A stretch of 60,770 nt of DNA from an uncultured Planctomycetales bacterium. Lineage in GTDB: Bacteria; Omnitrophota; Gorgyraeia; Aquiviventales; Aquiviventaceae. Below, one piece after another: positions 8,178 to 54,670 of the stretch (position 1 is the stretch's first letter; each line of letters opens with the position of its first letter). The notes under the pieces were generated by a model. It was not told where the DNA came from. It worked only from the letters and a program-made list of their open reading frames with translations, and did no database searches. The DNA lies in assembly GCA_964373175.1 (NCBI GenBank), contig CAYJTP010000003.1, forward strand, positions 12,177 through 72,946, written 5' to 3'. The position numbers and the translations under genes were made by a program.

Positions 8178-8314
8178 TCCCCCCACCTGATGCGGGCTGC
8201 CGAAGGCAGCCCATGCAACGTGGAGTGATGGATGAGAGTGTTGAAATTCGGGTGGGACAACATCTGGTGTGTTGCATTGTCCCGCCTTCGGCGGGACAGC
8301 ATCAGGTGGTGGGA
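8178..8314 (+). repeat. IR-bracketed start-codon cassette, copy 2 (before transketolase N)
   Basis: Arms TCCCCCCACCTG 8178-8189 and CAGGTGGTGGGA 8303-8314. The upstream stop TGA is at 8175-8177. Confidence 0.85.
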
Positions 8315-9144
8315 TGACGAAACCTGATCTCACCGCGTTGCGGCGGCTGGCCGTTGAGTTACGGCAGGACATCTTGACGATGATTGCCAAGGCAGGCAGC
8401 GGCCATCCCGGCGGATCGCTCTCGATGGTGGAACTTCTCATCGGCCTGTACTGGTACGCGCTGCGGCATGATCCCAAGCATCCGTCGTGGCCGGGGCGGG
8501 ATCTCTTCTTGCTGTCGAAAGGTCATGGATGTCCGGCGCTCTATGCGGTCTTGGCGCATCGAGGCTATTTTCCGAAAGAGGAGCTCATGACGCTCCGACG
8601 CTATCCGACCCGATTGCAGGGGCACCCGGAAAAAGATTCGCCGCCAGGGGTGGAGATCGCCTCGGGGTCGCTTGGTCAAGGGCTCTCAATGGCCAACGGG
8701 ATTGCGCTCGCCGATCGCTTGGACGGCCGCACGCGGCGGATCTACTGTCTGCTGGGCGATGGGGAAATTCAGGAAGGCCAAGTGTGGGAAGCGGCGATGA
8801 CCGCCCACCATCACAAGCTGGAGAGCGTGTGCGCGATCATCGATGCGAATCAGTTGCAGCAAAACGGTCCGGTGAAAGAGATTCAAGATATCGAGCCGCT
8901 CGCCGATAAGTGGCGGGCGTTTGGGTGGCATGCGATTGAGATCGACGGCCATGACCTCGTCCGCGTGATCGACGCCTACGATGAGGCGAAGACCATCCGT
9001 GGCAAGCCTCAGGTGATTATCGCGCGAACGGTGAAGGGCAAAGGGGTTTCGTTTATGGAACTCAATCCCGCCTGGCATGGGGTGGCTCCCAAACCCGATG
9101 AATTGGACAAGGCGTTGAATGAGCTGCGGATGGTGAAGGTCTAA
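8314..9144 (+). CDS. transketolase, N-terminal (TPP-binding) subunit
   Basis: GSGHPGGSLS and GDGEIQEGQVWEA motifs. Start taken at the ATG in the right arm of IR cassette 2 (MTKPDLTALRRLA). Confidence 0.9.
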   Translation: MTKPDLTALRRLAVELRQDILTMIAKAGSGHPGGSLSMVELLIGLYWYALRHDPKHPSWPGRDLFLLSKGHGCPALYAVLAHRGYFPKEELMTLRRYPTRLQGHPEKDSPPGVEIASGSLGQGLSMANGIALADRLDGRTRRIYCLLGDGEIQEGQVWEAAMTAHHHKLESVCAIIDANQLQQNGPVKEIQDIEPLADKWRAFGWHAIEIDGHDLVRVIDAYDEAKTIRGKPQVIIARTVKGKGVSFMELNPAWHGVAPKPDELDKALNELRMVKV

Positions 9145-14380: not shown

Positions 14381-15340
14381 ATGCCAACGCGCAACAGCGA
14401 CTTAGCGATTTTCAGCGGGAACGCCAACCCGACGCTCGCCAGAGCGGTGTGCCGGCGTCTGAAGACCAAGCTCTCCAACTGCCTCGTCGGTCGATTCAGT
14501 GACGGGGAAATCCGGGTCAAGATCAACGAGAACATTCGTGGCAAGGATGTGTTTGTCATCCAGCCAACCTGCCCACCGTCCAACGACAATCTGATGGAAC
14601 TGCTCATCATCATCGATGCGAGCCGTCGGGCGTCGGCGCGGCGCATCACGGCGGTCATCCCGTATTACGGCTACGCGAGGCAGGACCGCAAGGACCAGCC
14701 TCGAGTGCCCGTGACTGCAAAGCTCGTCGCGAATCTCATTACCACGGCCGGGGCGGACCGGGTCCTCACGATGGACCTCCACGCCGGGCAGATCCAAGGG
14801 TTCTTCGATATTCCCCTGGATCATCTCTATGCGGTGACGGTGTTTGAGCAGTACATCAGACGCAAGCGGCTCGCCCCGCTCGTCGTGGTCTCTCCCGACG
14901 TCGGTGGGATCAAGATGGCCCGGGCGTATGCCAAGCGGCTGGAGGCGGGGCTGGCGATTGTGGACAAGCGCCGCAAAACCCCGGAGTCCATCGAGGCCAT
15001 GCACATCCTCGGGGAGGTCCAAGGGAAGTGTTGTCTGCTGGTTGATGACCTGATCGCCACGGGCAGCTCCATCCTCGAGGCGGCGAGAGCCTTGAAGCGC
15101 GCTGGAGCGAAAACCATCTATGGAGCCGTGACCCACGCGGTGCTCTCAGGTCCGGCGGTGTCGAACATCGCCAGTTCCCCGTTACAAGAGTTCATCGTGA
15201 CCGATACCATCCCACTGCCCGAGGACAAACGTCATCGCAAGCTCAAGGTCCTGTCAGTCGCCCCGCTCTTGGGCGAGGCGATTCGGCGGATTCACGATGA
15301 GCGGTCCATCAGCTCGCTCTTCGATGGAGTATCCGGATGA
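14381..15340 (+). CDS. prs: ribose-phosphate pyrophosphokinase
   Basis: DLHAGQIQGFFDIP and VDDLIATGSS motifs, 319 aa. Confidence 0.95.
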   Translation: MPTRNSDLAIFSGNANPTLARAVCRRLKTKLSNCLVGRFSDGEIRVKINENIRGKDVFVIQPTCPPSNDNLMELLIIIDASRRASARRITAVIPYYGYARQDRKDQPRVPVTAKLVANLITTAGADRVLTMDLHAGQIQGFFDIPLDHLYAVTVFEQYIRRKRLAPLVVVSPDVGGIKMARAYAKRLEAGLAIVDKRRKTPESIEAMHILGEVQGKCCLLVDDLIATGSSILEAARALKRAGAKTIYGAVTHAVLSGPAVSNIASSPLQEFIVTDTIPLPEDKRHRKLKVLSVAPLLGEAIRRIHDERSISSLFDGVSG

Positions 15341-16128
15341 GCCCCAAGAAACCCAGCGGTGAACAACTGGCTGAACTCGTGGCGAAACGACGCACGACAG
15401 CGGGGACACGGGCCGTTGGCCGGTTGCGTCGGGAAGGCTTGATCCCCGGCGTGGTGTATGGCAAAACGACCTCCCCGACGCCCGTGGTGATCAGCCATCG
15501 GGATCTCGTGAAATTCCTCCACGCCAGGGCTGGTGAGCATGGGTTGGTCAAACTATCCGTCGAGGCGGACCCCGCCCTTTTGGGACGATCCGCAGAGGTG
15601 TCTCGCAGCCAAAAGGGCGGGGCGTGGCAGAAACCAGTCCTGATCAAGCATCTGCAGCGCGATCCGGTCACTGGGGAGATCACCCATGTGGACTTCCACG
15701 CGATTACGCTGACCGAGCAGATTCGCATCAAGATCCCCATCGTCTTGAAGGGTGAGCCGGTGGGGGTCAAGCAAGAGGGCGGGGTGCTCGAGCATTTCTT
15801 GCGCGACATCGAAGTCGAGTGTCTGCCCACCGCCATTCCCAAACAGGTGGAGTATGACGTCAGTGCGCTGAAGATCGGGGAGACGATCCATGTCCGGGAT
15901 CTGGCCCCGCCCGAGGGGGCACGGATGACGACAGACCCCGAAGGGGTGATTGCCTCAGTGCTGGCGCCGAAGGAAGAAAAGGTGGAAGCGGTCGCCGAAG
16001 CCGTGACGGAGCCGGAGGTGATTCGCGAGAAGAAACCGGAAGCGGAAGGTGAGGCGGCCGAAGAGAAGCCTGAGAAAGCTGAGAAACCTGAGAAACCCGA
16101 GAAGGCCGAGAAGAAAGACGACAAGTAA
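15337..16128 (+). CDS. rplY: 50S ribosomal protein L25/Ctc (general stress form)
   Basis: RRTTAGTRAVGRLRREGLIPGVVYG...HVDFH. ATGA overlap with prs. Contains an in-frame palindromic insert and an EKP/EKA repeat tail. Confidence 0.9.
   Translation: MSPKKPSGEQLAELVAKRRTTAGTRAVGRLRREGLIPGVVYGKTTSPTPVVISHRDLVKFLHARAGEHGLVKLSVEADPALLGRSAEVSRSQKGGAWQKPVLIKHLQRDPVTGEITHVDFHAITLTEQIRIKIPIVLKGEPVGVKQEGGVLEHFLRDIEVECLPTAIPKQVEYDVSALKIGETIHVRDLAPPEGARMTTDPEGVIASVLAPKEEKVEAVAEAVTEPEVIREKKPEAEGEAAEEKPEKAEKPEKPEKAEKKDDK
15570..15622. repeat. palindromic element inside rplY coding sequence
   Basis: Perfect 14-bp arms CCCCGCCCTTTTGG / CCAAAAGGGCGGGG. Confidence 0.8.
16063..16116. repeat. 6 x 9-bp imperfect tandem repeat (GAGAARSCN)
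   Basis: Encodes the EKPEKAEKPEKPEKAEK tail of L25. Confidence 0.8.
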
Positions 16129-16141
16129 CGGGGATGGATGA

Positions 16142-16297
16142 TCCCACCACCTGTCGCCGGTGGCACTTCATGGAGAGGGCTCAATGGTCGATTGCGTTTG
16201 TGCGCCACATGAACCACGTCACGCCACCGTGGCCGGTGAGCAGTTTTCAGGGGGCGGCCAGGGCTCGCGGAACGCGAGCCTGCGCCAGGTGGTGGGA
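16142..16297 (+). repeat. IR-bracketed start-codon cassette, copy 3 (before pth)
   Basis: Arms at 16142-16153 and 16286-16297. ATG at 16297. Confidence 0.85.
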
Positions 16298-16902
16298 TGA
16301 AACTCATCGTGGGCCTTGGCAATGTCGGGCAGCCCTATGAGGGTACGCGACACAATGTGGGTTTCGAGGTGGTCCGGCGACTGGCCAGAACACGCCGGGT
16401 TCAGTGGAAACCGAAATTCAAAGCGCGTGAAACGATCGCACTGTCTGGGGATTGGAAACCCGGCCACGCCGTGGTTCGGCTGTTCCTCCCGCAACTCATG
16501 ATGAATCAGTCGGGGGAAGCGTTGGCCACTGCCGCTGAACGACCGGTCCTTCCTCAGGATATGCTGATTGTGTGTGATGACGTCAATCTCCCCTTGGGGA
16601 CCCTGCGCTTGAGGCCAAAAGGGAGCGACGGGGGGCACCATGGGTTGGCTTCCTGTCTTGAGGTCCTGGGGACCCACGCGGTGGCTCGCTTGCGGATTGG
16701 CGTTGGGGCAATGCCCCTGCCGAGAGACCTGACCGAGTTTGTCTTATCGCCATTCGACGCGCAGGAGCGTCCGACGGTCCATCAGATGATCGAACAGGCT
16801 GCGGTGGCGTGTGAACTGTGGGCGACACAAGGGATTGAGGTGGCGATGAATCGTGTGAACCCCGCCAAATGGCGGGATCATGGGGGCGGGGTGAACGCGT
16901 AA
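16297..16902 (+). CDS. pth: peptidyl-tRNA hydrolase
   Basis: MKLIVGLGNVG..Y..TRHNVGF. The ATG lies in the right arm of IR cassette 3. Confidence 0.93.
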   Translation: MKLIVGLGNVGQPYEGTRHNVGFEVVRRLARTRRVQWKPKFKARETIALSGDWKPGHAVVRLFLPQLMMNQSGEALATAAERPVLPQDMLIVCDDVNLPLGTLRLRPKGSDGGHHGLASCLEVLGTHAVARLRIGVGAMPLPRDLTEFVLSPFDAQERPTVHQMIEQAAVACELWATQGIEVAMNRVNPAKWRDHGGGVNA

Positions 16903-24413: not shown

Positions 24414-25239
24414 CGCGGACGTGAACGCCAAGGCTCGGGTGCGGCGCCGCGCCTCTCGAGGCACGGCGGTTCATCCGATGGCGCTTGTGGATCCCCAGGC
24501 CGTCTTGGAGGCTGGGGTCGACGTGGGTCCGTATGCGGTGGTCGGTCCCCAGGTGCGGATTGGTTCCCGGACTCGGATCGGCGCGCACTGTGTGATCGAG
24601 GGAGACACTACCATCGGCTCCGACTGCCAGCTTTTTACGGGCGCGGTCATCGGGAGCATTCCTCAAGATCTCAAGTATACCGGCGAGAAAACCCAGCTGA
24701 TCATCGGGGACCGCAACCGGATCCGCGAGTACGTGACGATCAATTCAGGCACCAAAGGGGGCGGCGGCAAAACCGTCATTGGCTCGGACTGTTTGCTCAT
24801 GGCGTATTCCCATGTCGCCCACGACTGTTTCATCGGGAACCAGGTGGTCATCGCCAATAGCGCGGCCCTGGCCGGGCATATCCTCGTGGAAGATGCCGCC
24901 GTCATCGGCGGGTTGGTGGGGATTCATCAGTTTGTGCGTGTGGGGACCCTCGCCATCATCGGGGGTCTGTCGCGGGTGGTCCAAGACGTCCCCCCGTACG
25001 CCACGTGCGTCGGCTACCCCGCCAAGGTCTTTGGGGTGAACACCGAGGGGTTGCGTCGGGCCGGGATCTCGAAAGACGCCAAGGAGCATCTGCGCAAGGC
25101 CTTCCGCGTGCTGTTCCACTCCGGCCTGTTGATGAGCCACGCCATCGATCAGGTGGCGCAGGACGCCAATCACTGCCCAGAAGTCGACCATCTCCTGAGC
25201 TTCATTCGACAGTCGAAACGCGGCGTCTGCCGCGCCTAG
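24406..25239 (+). CDS. lpxA: acyl-ACP--UDP-GlcNAc O-acyltransferase
   Basis: VHPMALVDPQAVLEAGVDVGPYAVVG hexapeptide beta-helix followed by a helical C-terminal domain. Overlaps the lpxC/fabZ stop. Confidence 0.9.
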   Translation: MRDADVNAKARVRRRASRGTAVHPMALVDPQAVLEAGVDVGPYAVVGPQVRIGSRTRIGAHCVIEGDTTIGSDCQLFTGAVIGSIPQDLKYTGEKTQLIIGDRNRIREYVTINSGTKGGGGKTVIGSDCLLMAYSHVAHDCFIGNQVVIANSAALAGHILVEDAAVIGGLVGIHQFVRVGTLAIIGGLSRVVQDVPPYATCVGYPAKVFGVNTEGLRRAGISKDAKEHLRKAFRVLFHSGLLMSHAIDQVAQDANHCPEVDHLLSFIRQSKRGVCRA

Positions 25240-25274
25240 ACCCGCTCAACCAACAACAGCCTGACCCCAAGCCC

Positions 25275-26114
25275 ATGCCTGATGCGTGTGCGGTGATCGC
25301 GGGAGCTGGCTCGTTTCCCCGTCATGTGGCGCAGGAAGCCAGACGCCAAGGCCTGACGGTGGTGGGGATCGGGCTTCAAGGCTGGGTCGATCGTGACTTT
25401 GCTCAGCATGTCGATGTGTATGAGGAGATCGCGATTGGGCAACTGAAACGCCTCATCGACCGGCTGGATGCTCACCACGTGCGCCAAGCCGTGATGGCGG
25501 GGAAAGTCACGAAAGAAATCTTGTTTGATTCGCGCGTCCGCTTCGATCCTGAGGCCCTGGGCATTGTGACGCATGTGAAGGAGTTTTCCGTCAACGCGCT
25601 GTTGGGGGCGCTGGCTGCGCGTCTTGCCAAGGCCGGGATCACGTTGCTGGATTCCTCGACGTTCCTCAAGCCCAACCTCTGCCCGAAGGGCGTGTTGACC
25701 AGGCGGGAACCGACGCATGAGGAGCAGGAAGACATCCGCCTGGGAATGCAGGCCGCTCGGCACCTCGCGCAGTTGGATATCGGCCAGACCGTCGTCGTGA
25801 AGCATCGGGTCGTCGTGGCGGTCGAGGCCTTGGAAGGGACCGACGCGGCCATTCAACGAGCCGGCCACCTGGCCGGGCGGGACCTCGTCGTCATCAAGAT
25901 GGCCTCCCCCACCCAAGACATGCGCTTCGATCTGCCCATCCTTGGTCCCCAGACCATCGCGGTGGCCATCGCCTCGGGGGTTCGGTGTCTGGCGGTGGAA
26001 GCCGCAAAGACGCTGCTGCTTGAACGAGACGCGCTGATCGCCCACGCCGACGACGCTAACCTCAGTCTCGTGGGCGTTGAAATCCCTGATCCGGTGCACA
26101 CGGATCGGACATGA
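25275..26114 (+). CDS. lpxI: LpxI family (DUF1009) UDP-2,3-diacylglucosamine hydrolase
   Basis: AVIAGAGSFP...DIGQTVVVKHRVVVAVEALEGTDAAIQRAG. The stop TGA sits in the left flank of IR cassette 4. Confidence 0.78.
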   Translation: MPDACAVIAGAGSFPRHVAQEARRQGLTVVGIGLQGWVDRDFAQHVDVYEEIAIGQLKRLIDRLDAHHVRQAVMAGKVTKEILFDSRVRFDPEALGIVTHVKEFSVNALLGALAARLAKAGITLLDSSTFLKPNLCPKGVLTRREPTHEEQEDIRLGMQAARHLAQLDIGQTVVVKHRVVVAVEALEGTDAAIQRAGHLAGRDLVVIKMASPTQDMRFDLPILGPQTIAVAIASGVRCLAVEAAKTLLLERDALIAHADDANLSLVGVEIPDPVHTDRT

Positions 26115-26256
26115 TCCCCCCACCTAGCTTCCCCCCCGGCTGTCGCCGGCGTCGGGCCGGGGGGGCCGACCTCGTGGGAAGCGAAGTATTGATTCGCCTT
26201 CCCGCCGTTGGCGGGATCCGCCAGAGGCGCGATCGGCGAATAGACAGGTGGGGGGA
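26115..26256 (+). repeat. IR-bracketed start-codon cassette, copy 4 (before rhomboid)
   Basis: Arms TCCCCCCACCTA 26115-26126 and CAGGTGGGGGGA 26245-26256. The upstream stop TGA is at 26112-26114. Confidence 0.8.
26131..26165. repeat. GC palindrome shared with 36593-36624 (opposite orientation)
   Basis: CCCCCCCGGCTGTCGCCGGCGTCGGGCCGGGGGGG. Its reverse complement matches 36593-36624 with 1 mismatch over 32 nt. Confidence 0.8.
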
Positions 26257-26936
26257 TGATCCCGGTTCGTGATACCATTCCCTCCAACCGCACCGCGTGG
26301 GTGGTTCGCGCCGTGCTCCTGGCCAACGTTGGGCTGTTCTTCCTGGAGTTGCGGCAAGGCGCTGCGGTTGAGACGATGCTCTATCGGTTTGGGGTCGTGC
26401 CGGCCGACTGGGAGTTGAGTACCCTCCACGACGTCTTCCAATGGCCTCGGCTGATCGGGACGCTGATCACCTCGCAGTTTCTGCATGGTGGCTTGCTGCA
26501 TTTAGGATCCAATATGCTCTATCTCTGGATCTTCGGGGACAACGTTGAGGATCTGTTAGGGCACGGGCGCTTCCTGTTGTTGTATCTCGGCAGCGGCATC
26601 GCGGCGGGGCTGGTCCAGTTGGCGATGCAGCCGCAAGCGACGGTGCCGATGATTGGCGCAAGCGGGGCGATCGCCGGCGTGTTGGGGGCGTATTTCCTGT
26701 TGTTCCCGTTTGCCCGGATCGTCACGCTCATTCCCTGGTTTTTCTTCTGGCAGTTCGTGGAGCTCCCGGCGTTTGTGTTTTTAGGATTCTGGTTTGTCCT
26801 CCAGTGGCTCCAAGGGATGACGACGATTGGCCAGATGGTCCATCTGGGCGGAGTGGCGTGGTGGGCCCATGTCGGGGGATTCGTTGGCGGACTGGTCTTT
26901 GCGGTGAATCTGCGCCCTCGCCGACGCTATTTTTAA
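26256..26936 (+). CDS. rhomboid family intramembrane serine protease
   Basis: FLHGGLLHLGSNMLYLWIFG and GASGAIAGVLGAY motifs, 6 TM helices. The ATG lies in the right arm of IR cassette 4. Confidence 0.85.
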   Translation: MIPVRDTIPSNRTAWVVRAVLLANVGLFFLELRQGAAVETMLYRFGVVPADWELSTLHDVFQWPRLIGTLITSQFLHGGLLHLGSNMLYLWIFGDNVEDLLGHGRFLLLYLGSGIAAGLVQLAMQPQATVPMIGASGAIAGVLGAYFLLFPFARIVTLIPWFFFWQFVELPAFVFLGFWFVLQWLQGMTTIGQMVHLGGVAWWAHVGGFVGGLVFAVNLRPRRRYF

Positions 26937-28199: not shown

Positions 28200-29734
28200 T
28201 GGCGCTCCGCCTGCCTTGGGTGGTTCCCGGCGATCTGGACGGATTGTTTGGGCTCTTCCTCGACAACGTCATCCAGTTGTTGCTGATCACCGTGCTGTGC
28301 CACCAGGTGGTCGGTATCCCCCTGGCGTTCGTGTGGGGGACCATCTTGCCAGGGGCAGCGATCTCGATCGTCGTTGGAAATCTCTTTTATGCGTGGCAGG
28401 CGCGACGGCTTGCCTACCAGACAGGGCGACCTGATGTCACCGCCCTCCCGTATGGCATTAATACGGTGAGCCTGTTTGCGTATGTCTTGCTCGTCATGAA
28501 GCCGATTGCCGATCAGACCCGCGATCCCCTCTTGGCATGGCGGGTGGGATTGCTGGCTTGTTTCGTCAGCTCGCTGCTTGAGATGAGTGGGGCGTTTGTG
28601 GGGGGGTGGCTCCGACGCGTCACGCCGCGTGCGGGATTGCTCGCCTCGCTCGCCGGCATTGCGATGACGTTTATTGCCATGGACTTCGTCTTGCGCACGT
28701 TTGACAACCCCCTGGTGGCCCTGTTGCCGCTCGCCATCATCTTGGCTCAGTATATGTCGAAGGTGGCCCTGCCGTTACGCCTCCCGGCGGGGTTGGTGGC
28801 CGTTGTCGTCGGGGTTCTCCTGTCTCGGCTCATCCCTGGATACCAGACCGCCGTCCCCAGCGGGGCGGCGTGGGGGATCGCCTGGCCCCATCTCTCGCTC
28901 ACAGAACTCGTGTCCACCCTAAAGCCCGAATACCTGTGGGCCTACCTCTCCGTGACGGTGCCTGTAGGCTTGGGCAACGCCCTGGGCAGTCTCCAGAATC
29001 TTGAGAGTGCTGAGGCTGCTGGGGATCGCTATGCCGTCCGATCCTCCTTACTGGTCAATGGGCTGGGGTCGCTGGTCGCCTGTAGCTTTGGGAGTTGCTT
29101 CCCCACGACGATTTACATTGGCCATGCCGGATGGAAAGCCTTGGGCGCCCGCTCGGGCTACTCGCTCCTCAATGGGGTGGCGATTGTGTTGCTGTGTCTC
29201 ACGGGGACTGTCGGCTGGGTCTTTCAGGCGATCCCGCTCGAAGCGGGAATGGGCATCTTGTTGTGGGTGGGGATCATCATCACCGCTCAGGCGTTTCAAG
29301 AGACCCCCAAGGCCCATGCGCTCGCCGTCGCCCTCGGCTTGTTTCCCGCGATTGCCGCGTGGGCTCTCATGGTCCTCGAACAAGGTCTCAAGGCGGTTGG
29401 GAGTAGCTTGCTGGCACTGGCGAGTCAACCGCAGAGCGGGATCGCTCTGCGCGGCCTCATCAGTGTCGAGCGGGGATTCTTGTTCACGTCGATGATTATG
29501 GCATCGATCGCGGTGTGGCTGATTGAACGGCAATTCCTGAAAGCCGCCGGGTGGGCATTTGTTGCGGCAGCCCTCAGTCTCTTGGGATTGATCCACGCCT
29601 ATGTCTTGACCCCCGGGGGGCTCGTCAGCCCCACGGCCCTTCACCTAGGCAGCCCCTTTGTGATCAGTTATACTCTATGTGGGTTGTTTTTTCTCGGGAT
29701 GCATCACTGGGTTCGACGCAAGGAGGTTCGATGA
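28199..29734 (+). CDS. polytopic permease, NCS2-like (xanthine/uracil/vitamin C permease-type) by resemblance
   Basis: About 12 TM helices. The N-terminal GDLDGLFGLFLDNVIQLLLI pattern is recalled from this permease family. Assignment is tentative. Confidence 0.5.
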   Translation: MALRLPWVVPGDLDGLFGLFLDNVIQLLLITVLCHQVVGIPLAFVWGTILPGAAISIVVGNLFYAWQARRLAYQTGRPDVTALPYGINTVSLFAYVLLVMKPIADQTRDPLLAWRVGLLACFVSSLLEMSGAFVGGWLRRVTPRAGLLASLAGIAMTFIAMDFVLRTFDNPLVALLPLAIILAQYMSKVALPLRLPAGLVAVVVGVLLSRLIPGYQTAVPSGAAWGIAWPHLSLTELVSTLKPEYLWAYLSVTVPVGLGNALGSLQNLESAEAAGDRYAVRSSLLVNGLGSLVACSFGSCFPTTIYIGHAGWKALGARSGYSLLNGVAIVLLCLTGTVGWVFQAIPLEAGMGILLWVGIIITAQAFQETPKAHALAVALGLFPAIAAWALMVLEQGLKAVGSSLLALASQPQSGIALRGLISVERGFLFTSMIMASIAVWLIERQFLKAAGWAFVAAALSLLGLIHAYVLTPGGLVSPTALHLGSPFVISYTLCGLFFLGMHHWVRRKEVR

Positions 29735-31214: not shown

Positions 31215-31302
31215 TATACGGGCACCACAGGCGTTCAGCAAGTCTTCCAACTGTTTTCCACGTGGCATCTTGGGTATACTTGACGCGTTGGAGGGATCAT
31301 GA

Positions 31303-31451
31303 TCCCACCACCTGTGCCGGCCCCGCCTCTCGGCGGGGCCCGAATGCCAACACAGGTTCGTGAGGTGTGGATCATGGGTCAGCCGCTGCATTCGTCGCGG
31401 CGGTGATGTCGGCGAGACTCCGCAAGCCGCCGTAAGGCGCAGGTGGTGGGA
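31303..31451 (+). repeat. IR-bracketed start-codon cassette, copy 5 (before glpK)
   Basis: Arms at 31303-31314 and 31440-31451. ATG at 31451. Confidence 0.85.
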
Positions 31452-32935
31452 TGATTCTGGCCATTGACCAAGGCACAACCGGAACCAGCGTGTTGGCGTT
31501 CGACCGCAAGGGTCGGGTCATCGCCCAGGGCTATGAGGAACTGCCCCAATATTTTCCCAAGCCGGGCTGGGTGGAACATGATCCAGAGGACATGCTGGCT
31601 GTGACCCTGCGGGTGATCAAGCGGACGCTTGACCGCGCCCATCTTCGCGCCACACAGCTTCTCGCTATCGGGATCACGAACCAGCGCGAGACGACCGTGC
31701 TCTGGGATCGGCGGACCGGACGGTCCGTGGCCAAGGCAATCGTGTGGCAGTGCCGGCGGACCGCCCCGATGTGTGAACGCTTGAAACGCCGTGGCCTTGA
31801 ACCGACAGTGCGTCGCAAGACGGGTCTGGTCCTCGATGCCTATTTTTCAGGCACCAAGGTGCGCTGGTTCCTCGACAATCTCCGAGGACTTGCCGCACGA
31901 GCGAAGCGGGGCGAGATTGCCTTCGGCACCGTCGACAGCTGGCTGCTCTGGCACTTGACCGGCGGCCGCATCCATGCCACGGACTACACGAATGCCTCGC
32001 GCACCCTGCTGTATAACATCCGCGCCTTGAGCTGGGATGACGACCTGCTGCGAATGTTCGCCATCCCGCGCACGCTCCTTCCAGCCGTGAAGTCGTCCAG
32101 CGGGCTCTTCGGGACCACGACGCGCATCGGGCCCCTTGCTGCAGGGATCCCGATTGCCGGAATCGCGGGTGACCAACAAGCTTCCCTGGTGGGCCACGGA
32201 TGCCTTGAGGCGGGCGATGCCAAAAACACCTACGGCACGGGATGTTTTCTCCTGCTGCAGACGGGCGCTCGCGTCGTGCTGAGTCGGCACGGGCTCATCA
32301 CGACCTTAACCTACGGGGGAAGGGAGTCGCCAAGCTATGCCTTGGAAGGCAGCGTCTTTATTGCCGGTGCCGCGATTCAATGGTTGCGGGACGGCCTGAA
32401 GGTGATCAAGACCGCCGCCGAAACGGAAGGAATCGCCAAGGGCGTCAAGAGTACCGGCGGGGTCTATGTGGTTCCTGCATTTGTGGGACTGGGCGCGCCC
32501 TATTGGGACATGCACGCGCGAGGAGGGATTGTCGGCCTCACCAGGGGGACGACTCGAGATGTGCTGGTGCGCTCGACGTTGGAGTCGCTCGCCTATCAGA
32601 CCCGTGACGTCGTGGAGGCGATGCAGCGCGATAGCGGCATCCGTCTCAAGCGACTTCAGGTCGACGGGGGCGCAGCCCGCAATAACTGGCTCATGCAGTT
32701 TCAGGCGGATCTGTTGGGGATTGACGTCGTGCGGCCCGCGCTGGTGGCCAATACCGCCAAGGGCGCGGCGTTGTTGGCCGGGATCGCCATGGGGTGGTGG
32801 GATCCAAGACGGCTGTCGACCTTGATGGGTGCGCCTGAGCGGATCTTTCGTCCACGGATGAACGCCCAAGAGCGCCAACGCCTGTACGCAGGGTGGCACG
32901 AGGCGGTTCAGCGGATGCGAACGCAGCGTCGGTAA
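31451..32935 (+). CDS. glpK: glycerol kinase
   Basis: MILAIDQGTTGTS...GITNQRETTVLWD. The ATG lies in the right arm of IR cassette 5. Confidence 0.95.
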   Translation: MILAIDQGTTGTSVLAFDRKGRVIAQGYEELPQYFPKPGWVEHDPEDMLAVTLRVIKRTLDRAHLRATQLLAIGITNQRETTVLWDRRTGRSVAKAIVWQCRRTAPMCERLKRRGLEPTVRRKTGLVLDAYFSGTKVRWFLDNLRGLAARAKRGEIAFGTVDSWLLWHLTGGRIHATDYTNASRTLLYNIRALSWDDDLLRMFAIPRTLLPAVKSSSGLFGTTTRIGPLAAGIPIAGIAGDQQASLVGHGCLEAGDAKNTYGTGCFLLLQTGARVVLSRHGLITTLTYGGRESPSYALEGSVFIAGAAIQWLRDGLKVIKTAAETEGIAKGVKSTGGVYVVPAFVGLGAPYWDMHARGGIVGLTRGTTRDVLVRSTLESLAYQTRDVVEAMQRDSGIRLKRLQVDGGAARNNWLMQFQADLLGIDVVRPALVANTAKGAALLAGIAMGWWDPRRLSTLMGAPERIFRPRMNAQERQRLYAGWHEAVQRMRTQRR

Positions 32936-36395: not shown

Positions 36396-36674
36396 GTGCT
36401 CGTGACGTCCAAGACCGTTCGCGTCGGTCAGGTTGCCGTCGTTGCCGCCATTGGGTTCCTCAGTTGTGCGCAAAGTCTCCCGGATCACGCGAAGGTTATT
36501 CGGGTCATCGACGGGGACACCATCGAGCTCGCGGATGGACGGCTCGTGCGCTATATCGGGATTGATACGCCGGAGTTTCGACGTTGGGCCCGCCCCCCCG
36601 GCCCGACACCGGCGACAGCCGGGGCGAACGGCGGGCCGGGGCGACTCGCTAGTGCTTCGACAGCATTGACATGA
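36396..36674 (+). pseudogene. truncated thermonuclease (SNase-like) lipoprotein gene
   Basis: A signal/lipobox-like N-terminus, then VIRVIDGDTIEL.DGRLVRYIGIDTPE. The SNase fold then stops and the frame runs into a GC palindrome (36593-36624). No remainder of the domain is seen downstream. Confidence 0.45.
36593..36624. repeat. GC palindrome shared with 26131-26165
   Basis: CCCCCCCGGCCCGACACCGGCGACAGCCGGGG. Sits at the truncation point of the SNase-like ORF. Confidence 0.8.
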
Positions 36675-39177: not shown

Positions 39178-40463
39178 TGACGCCTCCTCGGGGCCCAGCG
39201 CGGTTGATCTGGCTGTGCCGGGCGGCGGCTGTTGGGTTCTGCGTGTCCGGGTTGACGCTGTGTCCCCACGCAGCCTCCGCAGAGCCCCTCGTTGTGGGGA
39301 CGGCCAAACTTGACCTGATCCCTCCGGTGAAGACGCCGCTGGCTGGCTACAGCCGGCGCAAAGGGCGGCTGGCGACCGGCGTCCATGATCCACCCTTTGT
39401 GCGGGTGGTGGCGATCCACGCTGACGACACGACTGTCGCACTGGTGAGTTGCGATCTGCTCGTGATCGACGAACGGCTCTTCGATGCGGTCAAGACCCGG
39501 TTTCAAGCCACCGAACCACACCGGCCGATCCATCTCCTGCTTGCAGCGACCCATACCCACTCCGGTCCTGGAGCCTATGGACAGAAGTGGTTGGAAAAAA
39601 TTTCGATGGGGCACTTTGATCCGGTCGTCTTTGAGTTCCTCGCCTCGCGCATCGCCCAAGCCATTTCCACGGCCTTGGCAAAGATGCAGCCGGTGACCAT
39701 GAGCGATGCCGCGACGATGACCACCGGGTTGGTCACAAACCGCATGCGTCCTGACGGCGTGGTGGATCCTGAGTTGAGCGTCGTCGCATTTCTGGATGCG
39801 CAGCGTAACCCGGTTGCTGTGGTGGTGGATTTCAGCGCCCATCCGACGACGTTGGGAGCCTGGAACACCTTACTGAGCGCAGATTATCCGGGTGTGTTGG
39901 CCCAGCAGATTGAGCAGCGCTATCCAACGTCGGTGTGCCTGTTTCTGGCTGGCGCGGTGGGGGATCAAGGCCCGGTCAAACAGGGAGAGGGGTTCGACCG
40001 GCCCACGTGGCTCGGGACGGAGTTAGCAACGCACGTCTCAGTGTTGGTCGATCAGTCCCATCCAGAGCCTGTGCCGTCAGTCTTCGTGGAGCAGCGCGTC
40101 GTGCGCCTCCCCCCGGCGCATCTTCGCCTCGGATCCGTGTTGCTGCCGTCGTGGTTCAGCCAACCGTTCGTCGATGACGACGCGACGCTCACCGTCATCG
40201 CCATTGGTCCGGTGCTCCTCATGGGTGTCCCGTGTGATTTCAGTGCCGAACTGGGCCTGACGCTCAAATCGTATGCTCGCGAGAAAGGCTTTCGGCCTCT
40301 TGTGGTTGGGTTTGCCAATGACTACATCGGCTACTGCTTGCCAGAACGGTGGTATCGGACGCAGGCGTATGAAGCCATGCTGGCGTTTAATGGCCCGAGG
40401 ACGGGTGAGCTGCTCGTCGAGACGCTCAAGCAGATGATCGATCAACTTGCGAGTGATGAGTGA
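39177..40463 (+). CDS. neutral/alkaline ceramidase-like secreted hydrolase
   Basis: Signal peptide, then GTAKLDLIPPVKTPLAGY...VVAIHADD...ATHTHSGPG. The final codons SDE-stop are word-repeat sequence. Confidence 0.65.
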   Translation: MTPPRGPARLIWLCRAAAVGFCVSGLTLCPHAASAEPLVVGTAKLDLIPPVKTPLAGYSRRKGRLATGVHDPPFVRVVAIHADDTTVALVSCDLLVIDERLFDAVKTRFQATEPHRPIHLLLAATHTHSGPGAYGQKWLEKISMGHFDPVVFEFLASRIAQAISTALAKMQPVTMSDAATMTTGLVTNRMRPDGVVDPELSVVAFLDAQRNPVAVVVDFSAHPTTLGAWNTLLSADYPGVLAQQIEQRYPTSVCLFLAGAVGDQGPVKQGEGFDRPTWLGTELATHVSVLVDQSHPEPVPSVFVEQRVVRLPPAHLRLGSVLLPSWFSQPFVDDDATLTVIAIGPVLLMGVPCDFSAELGLTLKSYAREKGFRPLVVGFANDYIGYCLPERWYRTQAYEAMLAFNGPRTGELLVETLKQMIDQLASDE

Positions 40464-40629
40464 TGAGTGCCCGCCCCCCCGGCCCGCCGAAAGCGTCCGC
40501 CGGGGCGGGCGGCGATCGCCAGAGGCGGGCCGGGGATGAGTGATGAGTGACAAACAGCCTTACGCTATTTATCGTTGGGCGCTCATGATCGTAGTTGCTG
40601 CACTCGTCACTCACCACTCGTCACTCACC
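40451..40629. repeat. word-repeat hairpin (GTGATGA/TCACTCAC family) with GC-palindrome core
   Basis: GAGTGATGAGTGATGAGTG ... GATGAGTGATGAGTGAC ... CTCGTCACTCACCACTCGTCACTCACC. Spans the ceramidase-like stop and the C45 start. Confidence 0.75.
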
Positions 40630-45294: not shown

Positions 45295-45313
45295 CTCTCG
45301 CCTTCGGCAGCCC
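45220..45313. repeat. 94-bp perfect direct repeat, copy A
   Basis: Identical to 47536-47629. Covers 19 nt of leader plus codons 1-25 of the short PilX-like gene. Confidence 0.95.
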
Positions 45314-45331
45314 AACCACCCTTCGGGTGGC

Positions 45332-45380
45332 GTTTACAGTTTACCGTGTACCGTTCACCGTACACCGTTCACGGTACACC
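45332..45380. repeat. word-repeat element (ACCGTACAC family)
   Basis: GTTTACAGTTTACCGTGTACCGTTCACCGTACACCGTTCACGGTACACC, in the leader of the short PilX-like gene. Confidence 0.7.
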
Positions 45381-45393
45381 GCCCGTTGGGTTT

Positions 45394-45425
45394 GTGGCTT
45401 TGCGCCATACGGTTGCCCGTATGTT
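45394..45425 (-). promoter_or_regulatory. conserved 32-nt leader element, copy A (short PilX-like gene)
   Basis: Identical to 47740-47771. On the minus-strand RNA it contains CAUACGG-GCAA-CCGUAUG (7-bp stem, GNRA loop). Confidence 0.5.
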
Positions 45426-45492
45426 GCCTTTCTCGTGTGCGAGCCTTCCTTGGAAATAGCAAGGGAACAGATGATTCGTGGGACGGCGTTCA

Positions 45493-47610
45493 TTAACAGT
45501 GCATCGGCACGCCGTTCTCGTCGAGCTGTGGACCCTTTCCACCACCACAGCGACCCCCACTGCTACTGCTACTGCCAACACCTCCACTACTACTTCCCCC
45601 ACGGTCTTCACCCCTGTCGGTACCCCCTTGGACCAAGAAGCGCCCCAGGCGATACCACAGCGTGAAGATTTCTGGCTGTGCGGTGTTCACCGAGAACTTG
45701 GACCCGCCCAGACTCTCATCATAGAACACATGCGAGTTCGTCGAGACGTCCGCTTGCTTGGCCACGACCGCCCCGATCATCGCATGGTAGGGTCCAATCT
45801 TGATGTTGGTCTTTGGCGCATAGACCACCGCGGCGGTCACCCCTGCTGAAAACTGGACGCTTGCCGAGGGCGAGGTCACAAAGATGCGCAGGTTCTTTGG
45901 CGCATACTGATGGAGCGGGGTATGGAACGGTTCCTGCGCGCTGCCGAGTTGTTTCTGGCCATAGAGCTCGCCCCCATGCTGGGAGATATTGCCGGTGATG
46001 TAGAGGTCAACGGGTCCCTGCGTCCAGAGGACTGGCGAGACCTGGTCGGTTTTGTAGGTCGTCTGCGTGACGTACTCGGTTTTTGTCTGATAGGTCACCA
46101 CGTCTTTGTAGGTGGTTTTTGCGACCATCTTCGTCTGACACTGGTTTGTCGTCGAGCACTGGTTTGTCGTCGAGCACTGGTTTGTCGTCGAGCACTGGTT
46201 TGTCGTCGAGCACTGCTGGGTCGTCACCGGGGTGCAGGTCGTGACGGGGTTGCAGGTTGTCACCGGGGTGCAGGTCGTCGAGCACTGGTTTGTCGTTGTG
46301 CAGGGGTTCCCGGCTGCATAGGCCGGTTCTCCAAAGAGCAAGCAGAGCATCCAGTTCTCGGCATCCGGTTGCCTGTCCCACAAAAACGCGTCACCACCAC
46401 CCCCGCCCCCGTCTGAGGGACAGACCGTCACGGGTGTGCACTTCGTGGTGCATTGGTTCGTCGTCGAGCACTGGTTCGTCGTCGAGCACTGCTGGGTCGT
46501 CACCGGGGCGCAGGTCTGAACGGGCGTACAGGTCTGAACGGGCGTACAGGTCTGGACCGGCGTGCAGGTGGTCACATCTTGGCAGGTCGTGACCGGCTCC
46601 TGCGTCGTGACCGGCTCCTGCGTCGTGACCGCCACCTGCGTGGTGACAGGGACCTGGGTCGTGACCGGCACCTGGATGGTGGCGGTGTCCATGGACAGGT
46701 TGCTGGCTTTGTAGACACCTGGCGCAAGCGATCGCGTCGTCCCATTGAGCACGATGGCTCCAAGATTCTGTGCAGTGCTTGGAGGCACGATGGAAGTTGG
46801 GAGGAGCGCCTGCTGCTCGAGCTCCCCCACCGTCGCTGCTCCCTGCGAGTTTTCGAAGGTACTGCTCCTGTCAACGGTGACCGCCGTCGTGGGAACGCCC
46901 TTGGGGATCAGGATATCGCCCTTGACGGTGGAACTATTCGCAACTTTGATCAGATCGGTTTGGTCCTTCGCCGTGGTGGCGAGGTTCCCGTAGCGTCTCG
47001 TCTCATATGATTGGGGCAACTTGAATTTGTTGTTTTCATATCCCCCGAGGAGCGCTGACGCAATGGATCCGAAGGTTGAGCTGTTCACGCTGATCTTGTC
47101 GGTTGACAGGAGCGCGTTGGTGAGTCGCAGGTTACTTGACGGGATCGTCACAAGCATCGTGATGTCCTGGGCGATCGTGTTGCTGACCCCTGTGGCGATG
47201 ACGTTGTATTGGCCTGTTTCGGTGAGGCAGATGTCGTAGCTGCTGACCGTGGGACTGCTCTGATTCGATGCGAGCGTGTCGGCGGCTACGGGGATGGGAG
47301 TCGCTGAGGTGGTGTTCGACGCCAGCAGACTGGTCTTTGTAATGCAGTAGTTTGTGGCGAGTGCTGGGGGATTGACCTTGAGGGTGTACAGCGATTCATC
47401 GAGGGCCGCTTCGGCTTGCCAGAACGCCCGGTTTTGCTCCAGGGCAATCTGGGCATGCCGGACCTCCATGGAGCTTCTGGTGAACATGGCGGTGGTCAGG
47501 AGGGTAAACCAGAACACGAGAAGATAGCTATAGAGGAGGAGGGCAAACCCGCCCTCCGACTGCAGCAGGGAACAGCGGTGTGTTCGAGCCTGACAGGTTG
47601 TGTGCGTCAT
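45493..47610 (-). CDS. PilX N-terminal domain protein, long form with Cys/Thr hexapeptide repeat stalk
   Basis: Same leader and helix as the short form. Repeats (VTTQxP)n, (TPVQTC)3 and (QCSTTN)n, followed by a C-terminal beta-rich body. Confidence 0.6.
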   Translation of the reverse strand: MTHTTCQARTHRCSLLQSEGGFALLLYSYLLVFWFTLLTTAMFTRSSMEVRHAQIALEQNRAFWQAEAALDESLYTLKVNPPALATNYCITKTSLLASNTTSATPIPVAADTLASNQSSPTVSSYDICLTETGQYNVIATGVSNTIAQDITMLVTIPSSNLRLTNALLSTDKISVNSSTFGSIASALLGGYENNKFKLPQSYETRRYGNLATTAKDQTDLIKVANSSTVKGDILIPKGVPTTAVTVDRSSTFENSQGAATVGELEQQALLPTSIVPPSTAQNLGAIVLNGTTRSLAPGVYKASNLSMDTATIQVPVTTQVPVTTQVAVTTQEPVTTQEPVTTCQDVTTCTPVQTCTPVQTCTPVQTCAPVTTQQCSTTNQCSTTNQCTTKCTPVTVCPSDGGGGGGDAFLWDRQPDAENWMLCLLFGEPAYAAGNPCTTTNQCSTTCTPVTTCNPVTTCTPVTTQQCSTTNQCSTTNQCSTTNQCSTTNQCQTKMVAKTTYKDVVTYQTKTEYVTQTTYKTDQVSPVLWTQGPVDLYITGNISQHGGELYGQKQLGSAQEPFHTPLHQYAPKNLRIFVTSPSASVQFSAGVTAAVVYAPKTNIKIGPYHAMIGAVVAKQADVSTNSHVFYDESLGGSKFSVNTAQPEIFTLWYRLGRFLVQGGTDRGEDRGGSSSGGVGSSSSSGGRCGGGKGPQLDENGVPMHC
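46139..46210. repeat. perfect tandem repeat, 4 x 18 bp (CACTGGTTTGTCGTCGAG)
   Basis: Encodes (QCSTTN)4 on the minus strand. Degenerate 18-bp-period arrays continue to about 46680. Confidence 0.9.
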
Positions 47611-47629
47611 CTCTCGCCTTCGGCAGCCC
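47536..47629. repeat. 94-bp perfect direct repeat, copy B
   Basis: Identical to 45220-45313. Covers 19 nt of leader plus codons 1-25 of the long PilX-like gene. Confidence 0.95.
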
Positions 47630-47739
47630 TGCTACCCCACACCCAGCGCGAACCCCTTTCGTCGTACCAACACCGTCGCGTTCAGCGCATGCATTCCGCC
47701 ATGATCACCGCGATGAATGCAGCGCTGGGTGTGGGGCCA

Positions 47740-47771
47740 GTGGCTTTGCGCCATACGGTTGCCCGTATGTT
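47740..47771 (-). promoter_or_regulatory. conserved 32-nt leader element, copy B (long PilX-like gene)
   Basis: Identical to 45394-45425. Lies downstream of the predicted promoter, so it falls in the 5' leader. Confidence 0.5.
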
Positions 47772-47806
47772 ACCCTTTCGGAGCGAGCCGTTCTTTGGTC
47801 ATTACG

Positions 47807-53076: not shown

Positions 53077-53138
53077 AAGTCCCGCGCTTTGTCTTGTGGC
53101 GCGAGGCCAACCTTGTTAGAATATCGGCTCATCGATGG

Positions 53139-53279
53139 TCCCACCACCTGGCTGTCGCGGCTTCACGCGATAACCAACCGCGCAGGATGCCGCGACCGAG
53201 GCGGGTGGTGGGAGGCAAGAGGATTGAGCACGCCCGCCGCGGGTCCCGCCCGCAGGCGGGACACAACCAGGTGGTGGGA
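53139..53279 (+). repeat. IR-bracketed start-codon cassette, copy 6 (before ATP-grasp gene)
   Basis: Arms at 53139-53150 and 53268-53279. Flanked by ATGG on both sides. Confidence 0.85.
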
Positions 53280-54670
53280 TGGACTACGTCCCTGAGCATC
53301 TCCTCCGCCACCGATTGAGGCGTCTCAGCCGTCGGGATCTGACGGAGCGCTTGCAGGCGGCGCGGGCGCTCAGTACGGTGCGCGGCTTGCGGTTCCTCGA
53401 TGATCGCAGCCGCCCCCGGACGATTGACCTGGCGTTGGTGCCCTGGCTGCTCACCCCAGCGCAGATCGCGTTCTTTCGCCAGGTGGCCCAGCTCCTGGCC
53501 GATGCGCTCCTGCGGCTTCCCCATCTCTATGCCCAGCAGGCGCGCGTTCGCCAGCTCCTGTTCTTCGATGACACCCACGCATCCTGGGTGCGCCTGGCTT
53601 CCCACCCACGCAGCCGTCCGCTGGCGGTGATGGGACGGCTCGATTCCACCGCGACATTCTCCCACGCGGGATGGCGCAGGGCCTTTGCGATGCTTGAGCC
53701 AAATGCGGTGGGGGTGGGCGGGGTGCACTATGCGCCGACGGCCTGTTCAGTGGTGCTCGATGTGTTGGGGGATGTCCTTGAGCAGGCCTTTCCTGCCTAC
53801 CGAGTCGTTCCCACCCCTGATCCCCGCCAGTTGTTGATGGAGGAACTCACGGGGGTGAGCCGACGGCTTGGTCGGCGCATCCGTTCGGTTGCGCTCATCG
53901 AAAACGCGGACTATACCACCGGGACGGATGAGTTTGGCCAGTTGGCCCGGTATTTCTGCCAACACGGGTTGCACGCCCTCGTCGCTGATCCGCGGGAATT
54001 CCGTCTGTCGCACGGCCGGCTTGTGGCCCAGGGGCGCGAGATCGATCTCCTCTATCGGGACTGCGAACTGAGCGAGTTCGTGGAGATGGAGGCTGGCGGG
54101 CGTCGCTTGACGGCGCTGCGCCACGCCATTCAGGACGGCCGTCTGATCTCGGGGCTGTTGTGGGAGTTCGACCACAAGTCCAGTTGGGAGCTGTTTACGG
54201 ATCCTGTGTTTGGGCGCTACTTTTCTTTGCGCCAGCGACGATTCTTCCGCGCGCATCTGCCCTGGACCCGGCTCGTTCGTGAGGCGGTGGTCTCTGACCC
54301 AACGGGGAAGCGGACCGACCTCATCCGCTACATCAGGCGACACCGGGAGCATCTTGTGTTAAAACCGAACACCCTCTACGGGGGCCAAGGCGTCGTCGTA
54401 GGATGCACCGCGACGCCGGCGCTGTGGGACCGAACCATCGCCAAAGCCCTGCGGGGCTCCACCCACTACGTCGTCCAGCAACTGGCTCGCGTCAGGACTC
54501 ATCGGTTTCCCATTCTCGATCATGGGAGACCGCGAGAAGTAGAGCGTCAGGTCGTCTCTGGATTCTTCTTTAACTCGTCTCACGTCGGGCTGGTGGGGCG
54601 CTTCTCAAGCGATCCCGTCGTGAATGTGTCCCGAGGGGGCGGATTGCTCGCGGCCCTCATGGTCCAATGA
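53279..54670 (+). CDS. circularly permuted ATP-grasp / glutathionylspermidine-synthase-like protein
   Basis: 463 aa. ...HLVLKPNTLYGGQGVVVG... and a C-terminal NVSRGGG pattern recalled from the CP-ATP-grasp type 2 family. The ATG lies in the right arm of IR cassette 6. Confidence 0.5.
   Translation: MDYVPEHLLRHRLRRLSRRDLTERLQAARALSTVRGLRFLDDRSRPRTIDLALVPWLLTPAQIAFFRQVAQLLADALLRLPHLYAQQARVRQLLFFDDTHASWVRLASHPRSRPLAVMGRLDSTATFSHAGWRRAFAMLEPNAVGVGGVHYAPTACSVVLDVLGDVLEQAFPAYRVVPTPDPRQLLMEELTGVSRRLGRRIRSVALIENADYTTGTDEFGQLARYFCQHGLHALVADPREFRLSHGRLVAQGREIDLLYRDCELSEFVEMEAGGRRLTALRHAIQDGRLISGLLWEFDHKSSWELFTDPVFGRYFSLRQRRFFRAHLPWTRLVREAVVSDPTGKRTDLIRYIRRHREHLVLKPNTLYGGQGVVVGCTATPALWDRTIAKALRGSTHYVVQQLARVRTHRFPILDHGRPREVERQVVSGFFFNSSHVGLVGRFSSDPVVNVSRGGGLLAALMVQ

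Follow-up and report, generated by a model that had tools for sequence, protein, structure and literature searches.

Short structured elements between repeated TGA triplets at start codons in Omnitrophota: a probable family of MITE-like transposons

Six cassettes at start codons

The stretch of DNA considered here is a 60,770-nucleotide part of contig CAYJTP010000003.1 (assembly GCA_964373175.1, forward-strand positions 12,177 to 72,946), hereafter the window, and comes from an uncultured bacterium deposited as Planctomycetales and placed in the Omnitrophota by its GTDB lineage. It carries six copies of a short, highly structured sequence that probably represents a mobile element resembling MITEs (miniature inverted-repeat transposable elements); each copy with its flanks is called a cassette, which is a label only and has no integron meaning. 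All six cassettes lie on the + strand, and the right end of each is exactly the ATG of a + strand gene. The proteins encoded in the window have their best matches in Omnitrophota, and its gene order is common to seven Omnitrophota loci fetched for comparison. The genes next to the cassettes, apart from the left neighbour of cassette 5, were named by Pfam; the 463-aa protein 3' of cassette 6 has no Pfam match. A run search turned up the window sequence only in DNA metagenome runs.

The initial annotation of this DNA held that five cassettes are bordered on both sides by ATGA and the sixth by ATGG, and that a MITE-like insertion may have duplicated ATGR at start/stop junctions. The borders are where it placed them: ATGA lies on the left at 1444-1447, 8174-8177, 16138-16141, 26111-26114 and 31299-31302 and on the right at 1557-1560, 8314-8317, 16297-16300, 26256-26259 and 31451-31454, and ATGG flanks copy 6 at 53135-53138 and 53279-53282. 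In copies 2 and 4 the left TGA is at the same time the stop codon of the upstream gene, in agreement with the ends of the open reading frames (ORFs) of a tetratricopeptide repeat (TPR) gene (6597-8177) and lpxI (25005-26114). The two uninterrupted ATGA overlaps pointed out earlier are also present. The features are the following (TSD, target-site duplication):

1445-1560, + strand: cassette 1, glyA/nrdR junction; TSD TGA at 1445-1447 and 1558-1560
1448-1557, + strand: element of cassette 1, 110 nt, arms perfect
8175-8317, + strand: cassette 2, TPR gene/transketolase-N (tktN) junction; TGA at 8175-8177 and 8315-8317
8178-8314, + strand: element of cassette 2, 137 nt; left arm TCCCCCCACCTG with one mismatch
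16139-16300, + strand: cassette 3, rplY/pth junction; TSD TGA at 16139-16141 and 16298-16300
16142-16297, + strand: element of cassette 3, 156 nt; rplY stop TAA at 16126-16128
26112-26259, + strand: cassette 4, lpxI/rhomboid junction; TGA at 26112-26114 and 26257-26259
26115-26256, + strand: element of cassette 4, 142 nt; compensated A>C / T>G change in the arms (CCCCCC / GGGGGG)
31300-31454, + strand: cassette 5, 5' of a glycerol-kinase-like FGGY gene; TSD TGA at 31300-31302 and 31452-31454
31303-31451, + strand: element of cassette 5, 149 nt; GGAGG box 5 nt 5' of the left ATG
53136-53282, + strand: cassette 6, between tldD/pmbA (minus strand) and the 463-aa gene; TSD TGG at 53136-53138 and 53280-53282
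53139-53279, + strand: element of cassette 6, 141 nt; perfect arms, internal arm-like CGGGTGGTGGGAGG at 53202-53215
15337-15340, + strand: unoccupied ATGA stop/start overlap of prs/rplY, the same kind of site as the element uses
29731-29734, + strand: unoccupied ATGA stop/start overlap, preceded by AAGGAGG, the same kind of site as the element uses

The cassettes escaped a general repeat search of the whole window, owing to the excessive divergence of their interiors and to their unequal lengths; it was the arms that revealed them, the motif CAGGTGGTGGGATG having 13 matches with at most two mismatches in the window against 0.75 expected from shuffles. Cassettes 2 and 3 are crossed unchanged by contigs from four independent metagenome runs and are thus not assembly artefacts. 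For this comparison Logan contigs were compared at 97% likeness on four runs containing this genome; a comparison at 80% with related runs was too noisy, on account of the many relatives in them and of unitigs that are broken at the arms.

Further copies were gathered with an exact-arm pattern from 82 loci (given as L numbers) in 19 assemblies, and the counts below refer to about 105-107 copies including those of the window. The carrier assemblies are nearly all metagenome-assembled genomes (MAGs) of Omnitrophota whose names give a GC content of 45-67%; some bear the label Planctomycetales and one that of Auribacterota. A scan of viral contigs gave 0 matches. No copy occurs in the seven syntenic Omnitrophota loci (~124 kb), compared with six in the 60.8-kb window, so that the distribution is patchy and lineage-specific.

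Anatomy and predicted fold

The ends of the element form a perfect 12-nt inverted repeat, TCCCACCACCTG…CAGGTGGTGGGA, with 12/12 positions paired in nearly all copies and the first 12 arm positions nearly invariant among 105 distinct copies. The stem reaches 16 bp, since positions 13-16 are variable in sequence and paired in 83-93% of the copies as opposed to 43-65% in shuffles. These inner four positions covary, and double changes are also found at positions 1, 5 and 8. The stem joins the left end to the right end, which resembles a Shine-Dalgarno (SD) sequence. Elements measure 110-168 nt, with a short form of 78-81 nt, and their interiors are highly divergent yet always contain two or three GC-rich hairpins. 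The predicted fold of the six window copies lies between -73 and -95 kcal/mol (z -5.3 to -8.5), and in all six the predicted outer stem buries the SD-like right end together with the A and U of the start codon. A 127-nt subfamily drawn from three genomes retains its stems, with six compensated pairs, and has free loops. No Rfam family reached the gathering score at the cassettes, where only sub-threshold generic miRNA-hairpin matches (E up to 1) were returned, and no association of the cassettes with a tRNA or tmRNA was found.

There is no transposase gene inside the element, its only ORF coding for a 38-52-aa peptide without a conserved interior. At the right end, the ATG of the gene is rebuilt from the last A of the element and the duplicated TG, and it lies 4 nt 3' of the SD-like AGGTGG. 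This is a putative SD sequence, judged by the general 3' end of 16S rRNA; its 4-nt spacer has the geometry of AAGGAGGttcgATG at 29720-29733. A second, internal right-arm motif, GAGGTGGTGGGG, was noted at 1507-1518 within cassette 1, as was the above-mentioned CGGGTGGTGGGAGG in cassette 6, and similar motifs are present in L022 and L048. It is possible that these pair with the left arm in place of the SD-containing arm, which would give a fold with two states.

The flanking repeats are 3-bp duplications

Over 106 copies, the flank pairs read ATGA/ATGA in 76, GTGA/ATGA in 8, TTGA/ATGA in 4, CTGA/ATGA in 2 and ATGG/ATGG in 3, with window copy 6 in addition to the latter, and TGA stands on both sides in about 92 copies. 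Unusual flanks are the same on both sides as well, namely TGG in four copies (including window copy 6), CGA in L004, TGT in L028 and CTA in L060. The covariation of the flanks, which in the initial annotation rested on one variant, extends in this way to about 100 further copies in 19 other assemblies, four exceptions apart.

The base 5' of the left TGA varies (A 76, G 8, T 4, C 2-3), whereas the base 5' of the right TGA is always A, from which it follows that the duplication comprises 3 bp and that the inverted repeat ends with the right A. The latter is confirmed by L006 (with TGA flanks), L028 and L060, where the terminal T/A pair of the arms is changed to C/G. Hence, the earlier proposal of a MITE-like insertion with target duplication is supported, and its length has to be corrected from four bases (ATGR) to three (TGA/TGG). 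The pattern of the left base mirrors the start codons of cassette-free relatives, which are ATG in 53, GTG in 4, TTG in 4 and CTG in 1 of 62 cases. Of the 13 exact-arm copies with a left base other than A, four have ATGATG as their right flank, implying that the native junction was a TGATG overlap.

The +4 position of the genes is informative as to what the element selects. An A is found there in ~97% of the cassette-bearing genes and in 42% (26/62) of those in cassette-free relatives, a G in 4% as compared to a background of 40%, and a G on the right always occurs together with a G on the left. This argues that the element prefers TGA specifically and not start codons in general.

Two other origins of the identical 3-mers were considered and given up. 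Pairing between the flanks in RNA was rejected, since the partner of left -1 is the U of AUG and that of left -3 is +4, and the positions that can pair are therefore not those that covary. Translational bypassing, in which the codons of take-off and landing match, was dropped as incompatible with the frames. Coding cannot yield the matched flanks either, as CGA and CTA destroy both codons.

Evidence for mobility

At orthologous junctions without a cassette, the initial annotation expected a single ATGR. A single ATGA is found there at nrdR in 4/4 loci (L086-L089), at pth in 3/3 (L083-L085) and at the start of the rhomboid gene in 4/4 (L066, L083-L085), the exception being tktN, whose cassette-free starts read ATGA, ATGG or ATGC. 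Two loci that are orthologous on both flanks, L041 and L053, both carry a cassette at the same start codon. In L041 it is flanked by TGG/TGG and the gene begins ATGGCC; in L053 it is flanked by TGA/TGA and the gene begins ATGAGC. The interiors of the two are unrelated (59% identity as against 56% after shuffling), and the cassette of L053 shares 73-76% identity with others at unrelated loci of the same genome. Unrelated interiors and different duplications indicate two independent insertions at one start codon.

Further comparisons point the same way. The interiors at different loci of one genome are up to 93% identical, the same subfamily is found in both orientations relative to the gene, and tandem copies share one ATGA (L010, L012 and L067). 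The short 78-81-nt form lies in frame inside uvrA (L004), a korA-like 2-oxoacid oxidoreductase gene (L028) and cmk (L080), where it adds ~27-28 residues, for example LIPPPAAQPKGLRSLRERAATGGATGGGT in UvrA. An alignment to the Protein Data Bank places UvrA residues 186-214 as an insert relative to solved UvrA structures, and this insert coincides exactly with the element. Such intragenic copies are a minority, 3 of ~107.

Remnants were encountered as well. At L005:1316-1380, ATGA and a left arm are followed by the rpsQ start within ~40 nt, the right arm being missing, and this looks like a decayed or partly deleted element. Arm-like SD remnants occur at two otherwise empty starts (L043:6050-6066 and L032:4425; AGGAGTGGTGGGATGA and CATTGTGGGATGA). 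Orphan arms elsewhere are chance matches or belong to a truncated copy such as that at L005:1316.

The rplY/pth junction, which carries cassette 3 in the window, holds a different and much larger insertion in L083 (1610-9945), comprising a gene for a 1953-aa RHS/YD-repeat protein, several small ORFs and a HicB-like antitoxin gene.

A read-through mini-ORF

The distance from the left to the right ATG is 2 mod 3 in 80/107 copies, and the element lengths are 3-periodic (127, 130, … 154). In 76 of these 80 (76/107 overall) a mini-ORF is open from the left NTG to the right TGA. It begins ATG ATC CCA CCA CCT (MIPPP) and ends …CAG GTG GTG GGA TGA (QVVG and stop), and its closing TGA overlaps the ATG of the gene. 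As controls, another frame is open in 52% of the copies and the flipped element in 46%. The encoded peptides are alike only in their arm-encoded ends.

In 70/101 evaluable copies, an ORF of 100 or more codons ends at the left TGA. This bears out the earlier placement of the site at start/stop junctions for a majority of the copies; the target is more generally the TGA of a start codon. The mini-ORF is intact in 53/67 copies in which the left TGA ends a long upstream ORF and in 17/34 of the others (odds ratio 3.8, p = 0.0055), an enrichment that is predicted by a relay of translational coupling. Termination and re-initiation at ATGA overlaps is established in bacteria (PMC6728339).

Within the window, the mini-ORF of cassette 1 (1444-1560) is intact and codes for 38 aa (MIPPP…QVVG), its stop overlapping the nrdR ATG at 1557, and that of cassette 2 (8174-8317) is intact with 47 aa. 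In cassette 3 it is interrupted by TGA at 16210-16212, with an ATG-to-ATG distance of 159 (0 mod 3), and cassette 4 is out of frame with a distance of 145 (1 mod 3). Cassette 5 has the correct frame, but is interrupted by TGA at 31404-31406, and cassette 6 is interrupted by TAA at 53171-53173.

A TATAAT-like box stands 6-13 nt 5' of the left ATG at first-in-operon cassettes (L080, L062, L073, L078 and L012), and another is present 5' of cassette 6 at 53114-53119. The closeness of the box suggests that an mRNA with no leader, or a very short one, serves for translation of the mini-ORF and formerly served for that of the gene.

Preference for start codons

In cassette-free relatives, start-codon TGAs make up 16% of the non-coding and boundary TGA/TCA sites, compared with at least 90% of the copies located there. 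Selection must contribute to this bias, since a copy of the usual length class puts a gene out of frame when inside it, and those that survive within genes add a multiple of three. It is likely that target preference contributes as well. The 12 nt 5' of occupied sites resemble the right arm, with 5.3 of 12 matches versus 3.9 at background starts (p = 8e-5), a figure that is inflated by tandem copies and genome differences, has its background from other genomes and is to be taken as a hint. A palindromic extended target was considered and not retained: C is somewhat enriched in the downstream flank and G in the arm-like upstream flank, the upstream effect alone being significant.

A more speculative extension, which we regard as a tentative possibility and less probable than not, is that the element homes to starts and that hosts have come to depend on it. 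The enzyme would read TGA after an SD-like stretch resembling the element's own right end, and each insertion would regenerate the target site, which would explain the tandem copies. Hosts may in turn depend on the module as a translational relay or gate, in which the polyproline leader MIPPP and the SD-burying stem would tie about a tenth of the genes to upstream translation and possibly to the activity of EF-P.

Competing explanations

The cassettes are best accounted for, with good probability, as copies of a non-autonomous, MITE-like family of DNA transposons that is patchily distributed in Omnitrophota and duplicates the TGA at start codons. The element would be moved by a transposase with 3-bp staggered cuts. 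Its target is the TGA within the NTGA of a start codon, which often also serves as the upstream stop where genes overlap as ATGA or TGATG, and the upstream gene still ends at the left TGA once the element is in place. Ribosomes initiating or re-initiating at the old start would translate the mini-ORF and thereby melt the stem over SD and AUG; they would then terminate on AUGA and re-initiate on the gene. Such relayed expression and coupling would make the insertion nearly harmless, and the interrupted junction probably keeps working. The start-codon bias would be due partly to a preference for TGA, perhaps in a context like the element's own end, and partly to selection against other insertions. 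The initial annotation had likewise supposed that the left copy keeps the upstream stop and the right copy the start beside a new putative SD in a nearly neutral insertion, and the sequences are in keeping with this.

Several observations weigh against this explanation. Four copies have unmatched flanks, and the conservation of the arms across genomes is partly a matter of ascertainment, since the collection required exact arms and decayed copies are under-sampled. The autonomous partner with the same termini that had been suggested did not turn up in the window or in the fetched loci (~0.75 Mb), where paired arms are separated by 230 nt at most and enclose no ORF the size of a transposase gene; this search did not extend to whole genomes, and MAG contigs tend to break at insertion sequence (IS) copies. 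The contigs of the four runs containing this genome showed no empty-site allele, a weak argument as contigs hide rare variants; contig joints near 1463/1541 are due to further members of the family that have identical arms. The conservation of stems next to free loops suggests selection at the level of the host, in which case the elements are perhaps not purely selfish. The window keeps the mini-ORF in only 2/6 copies (1 and 2), and the relay is therefore not indispensable at every site. Finally, to our knowledge so strong a start-codon bias is not known for any transposase family with 3-bp duplications.

If the cassettes were instead an immobile cis-regulatory leader, inherited vertically or evolved in place, a small upstream ORF and an SD-sequestering stem would act together, for instance as a translational attenuator, a thermosensor or an EF-P/proline sensor via MIPPP, and the ATGA flanks would simply be a start codon and a stop/start overlap. 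This would fit an ORF that is open in one orientation only, a stem preserved by compensatory change around free loops, an SD and AUG hidden in a very stable predicted fold, a left-flank base that acts like the first base of a start codon, and the recurrence of cassettes at nrdR, tktN and rhomboid genes in several genomes. Such a leader does not account for CGA/CGA, CTA/CTA and TGT/TGT, which are identical on the two sides though both codons are destroyed, nor for the TGG/TGG covariation in four copies, which neither coding nor pairing explains. With the in-frame inserts inside uvrA, the korA-like gene and cmk, related interiors at unrelated loci and in both orientations, tandem copies, and complete absence from seven syntenic relatives, it is quite improbable. 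A somewhat better, though still unlikely, alternative grants mobility and assigns it to a site-specific or single-strand enzyme of the HUH type (IS200/IS605- or REP/RAYT-like; REP, repetitive extragenic palindrome) that inserts beside TGA near a hairpin, the second TGA belonging to the element or its cleavage site. The strongly hairpin-forming ends and interior, the high target specificity (TGA in ~92% of the copies) and the lack of a DDE-type partner in the window and fetched loci agree with it, as do identical termini in genomes labelled 45-67% GC, which would suit a conserved host-encoded enzyme. However, the ends are a perfect terminal inverted repeat, missing from IS200/IS605 and REP elements, the element occurs in both orientations, and the right 3-mer copies the unusual left one (TGG, CGA, TGT, CTA), unlike a fixed cleavage site carried by the element.

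The two remaining alternatives concern the flanks only. That the direct repeat is 4 bp long, as ATGR, is suggested by identical 4-mers in 79/106 copies (ATGA or ATGG) and by GTGT/GTGT in L028 and GCTA/GCTA in L060, the last two of which result from the T/A to C/G covariation of the terminal pair. It is contradicted by 14 copies with G, T or C before the left TGA and yet A on the right, and it would make the leftmost base of the element a T without a partner, where 3 bp give a perfect TCCC…GGGA inverted repeat; a 4-bp repeat is very improbable. As for the matching flanks being a by-product of composition, A at +4 is present in 42% of the relatives' genes and ATGA overlaps are frequent in bacteria. 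The rise to ~97% over ~100 copies, the depletion of G (4% against 40%) with its mirroring on the left and the duplication of flanks that are not starts reduce the probability of this explanation to nearly nothing.

Comparison with known systems

Four of five features that define MITEs are found in the elements described here: small size without a transposase gene, terminal inverted repeats, a target duplication, and dispersed copies with presence/absence at orthologous sites. The classical bacterial MITEs (Correia/NEMIS, ERIC, RUP, BOX) are similar in being small, dispersed and co-transcribed, with inverted repeats, target duplications and long hairpins and no transposase. They target short AT-rich sites (TA for Correia) anywhere in intergenic regions and in both orientations. 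A relay ORF and a rebuilt ATG are not among their described features, and the terms "start codon", "Shine-Dalgarno" and "ribosome binding" are absent from a 2024 review of prokaryotic MITEs.

The closest functional likeness is to the MIRUs, interspersed repetitive units of mycobacteria, which are described as apparently mobile short repeats at start codons or between cistrons, oriented with the gene (Supply et al., 1997; PMC12548453). At start codons they carry an ORF coupled at -4, and their impact on expression is thought to be minimal (PMC12548453). The internal ORF whose start and stop overlap the stop and start of its neighbours is shared by 76/107 copies here. The element described here differs in its perfect inverted repeat, 3-bp duplication, SD-like end and start codon rebuilt from its own last base, and in belonging to an unrelated phylum. 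MIRUs are 46-101-bp direct, often tandem units restricted to mycobacteria, and we know of no terminal inverted repeat, documented target duplication or large closing stem in them. The element thus works like a MIRU but is not a member of that family.

The Rickettsia palindromic elements (RPEs), ~100-150 bp long, are tolerated as in-frame peptide inserts in protein genes (PMC10969869). The 78-81-nt form in uvrA, the korA-like gene and cmk is alike in behaviour. RPEs occur chiefly within genes and are not known to be start-codon-specific or SD-carrying, whereas intragenic copies are the minority here.

Among transposases, 3-bp target duplications are made by the IS3 group, IS5/IS1031 ("TNA"), IS30 and PIF/Harbinger, which also have in common with the present element a target that is short and in part symmetric. 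IS30-type elements prefer targets resembling their own ends, and a preference of this kind would fit the arm-like upstream context seen here. In contrast to IS3 the ends lack TG…CA termini, and in contrast to IS5/IS1031 the target is TGA and not any TNA. IS200/IS605 and REP/RAYT elements have no inverted repeats or target duplication, possess subterminal hairpins and insert 3' of a fixed tetra- or pentanucleotide; elements derived from them do not match the perfect inverted repeat and duplicated variable flanks of the present family. In integrons, the imperfect palindrome attC closes the 3' side of promoterless cassettes, which form an array next to intI. Neither an array nor an integrase was seen in the window, where no dedicated attC test was made, and the elements adjoin the 5' ends of ordinary housekeeping genes whose synteny is conserved.

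Literature searches returned no description of the element in Omnitrophota and no paper with the arm sequence in this context. The family offers a second, independent example of the MIRU strategy, here with transposon hallmarks, by which the mechanism of start-codon insertion becomes testable. Transposon insertion is normally disruptive, and the family exhibits a compact way round this, each part of which can be read from the sequence. For the annotation of Omnitrophota it means that roughly one gene in ten in the window has a structured 5' insert of ~140 nt, at which gene callers will misplace starts or call spurious small proteins. The element also has the place of a natural counterpart to the synthetic bicistronic design, which insulates expression from the structure of the mRNA. 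There, a short leader ORF with an embedded SD and an overlapping stop/start brings a ribosome to the gene, and coupling abolishes the effect of repressive structure (PMC12548453). That design is engineered, and the element would be its natural, mobile version.

Other repeats and features of the window

A second repeat family in the window consists of GC-rich nested palindromes (CCCGCCCCCCCGGCCCG…CCGGGGCG…GGCGGGCCGGGG) at 30-70, 36588-36640 and 40469-40530, flanked on both sides by short tandem motifs such as gagtgatgagtga at 40455-40550. Low-complexity tandem motifs (cttctgtcctctg…, gggatttggg…, ccccgaac…, caccaaa…, cctagagc…) fill many spacers 5' of starts, as at 1403-1440 of the window and in L038, L057, L058, L088 and L089. 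On the minus strand, two c-di-GMP-I riboswitches (45303-45438 and 47619-47784; Rfam 54.6 and 49.5 bits) each belong to a leader that is duplicated over 129 + 47 nt with 91% and 87% identity, and between them runs a 705-aa ORF (45493-47610, minus strand) with 18-nt periodic repeats at 46131-46699.

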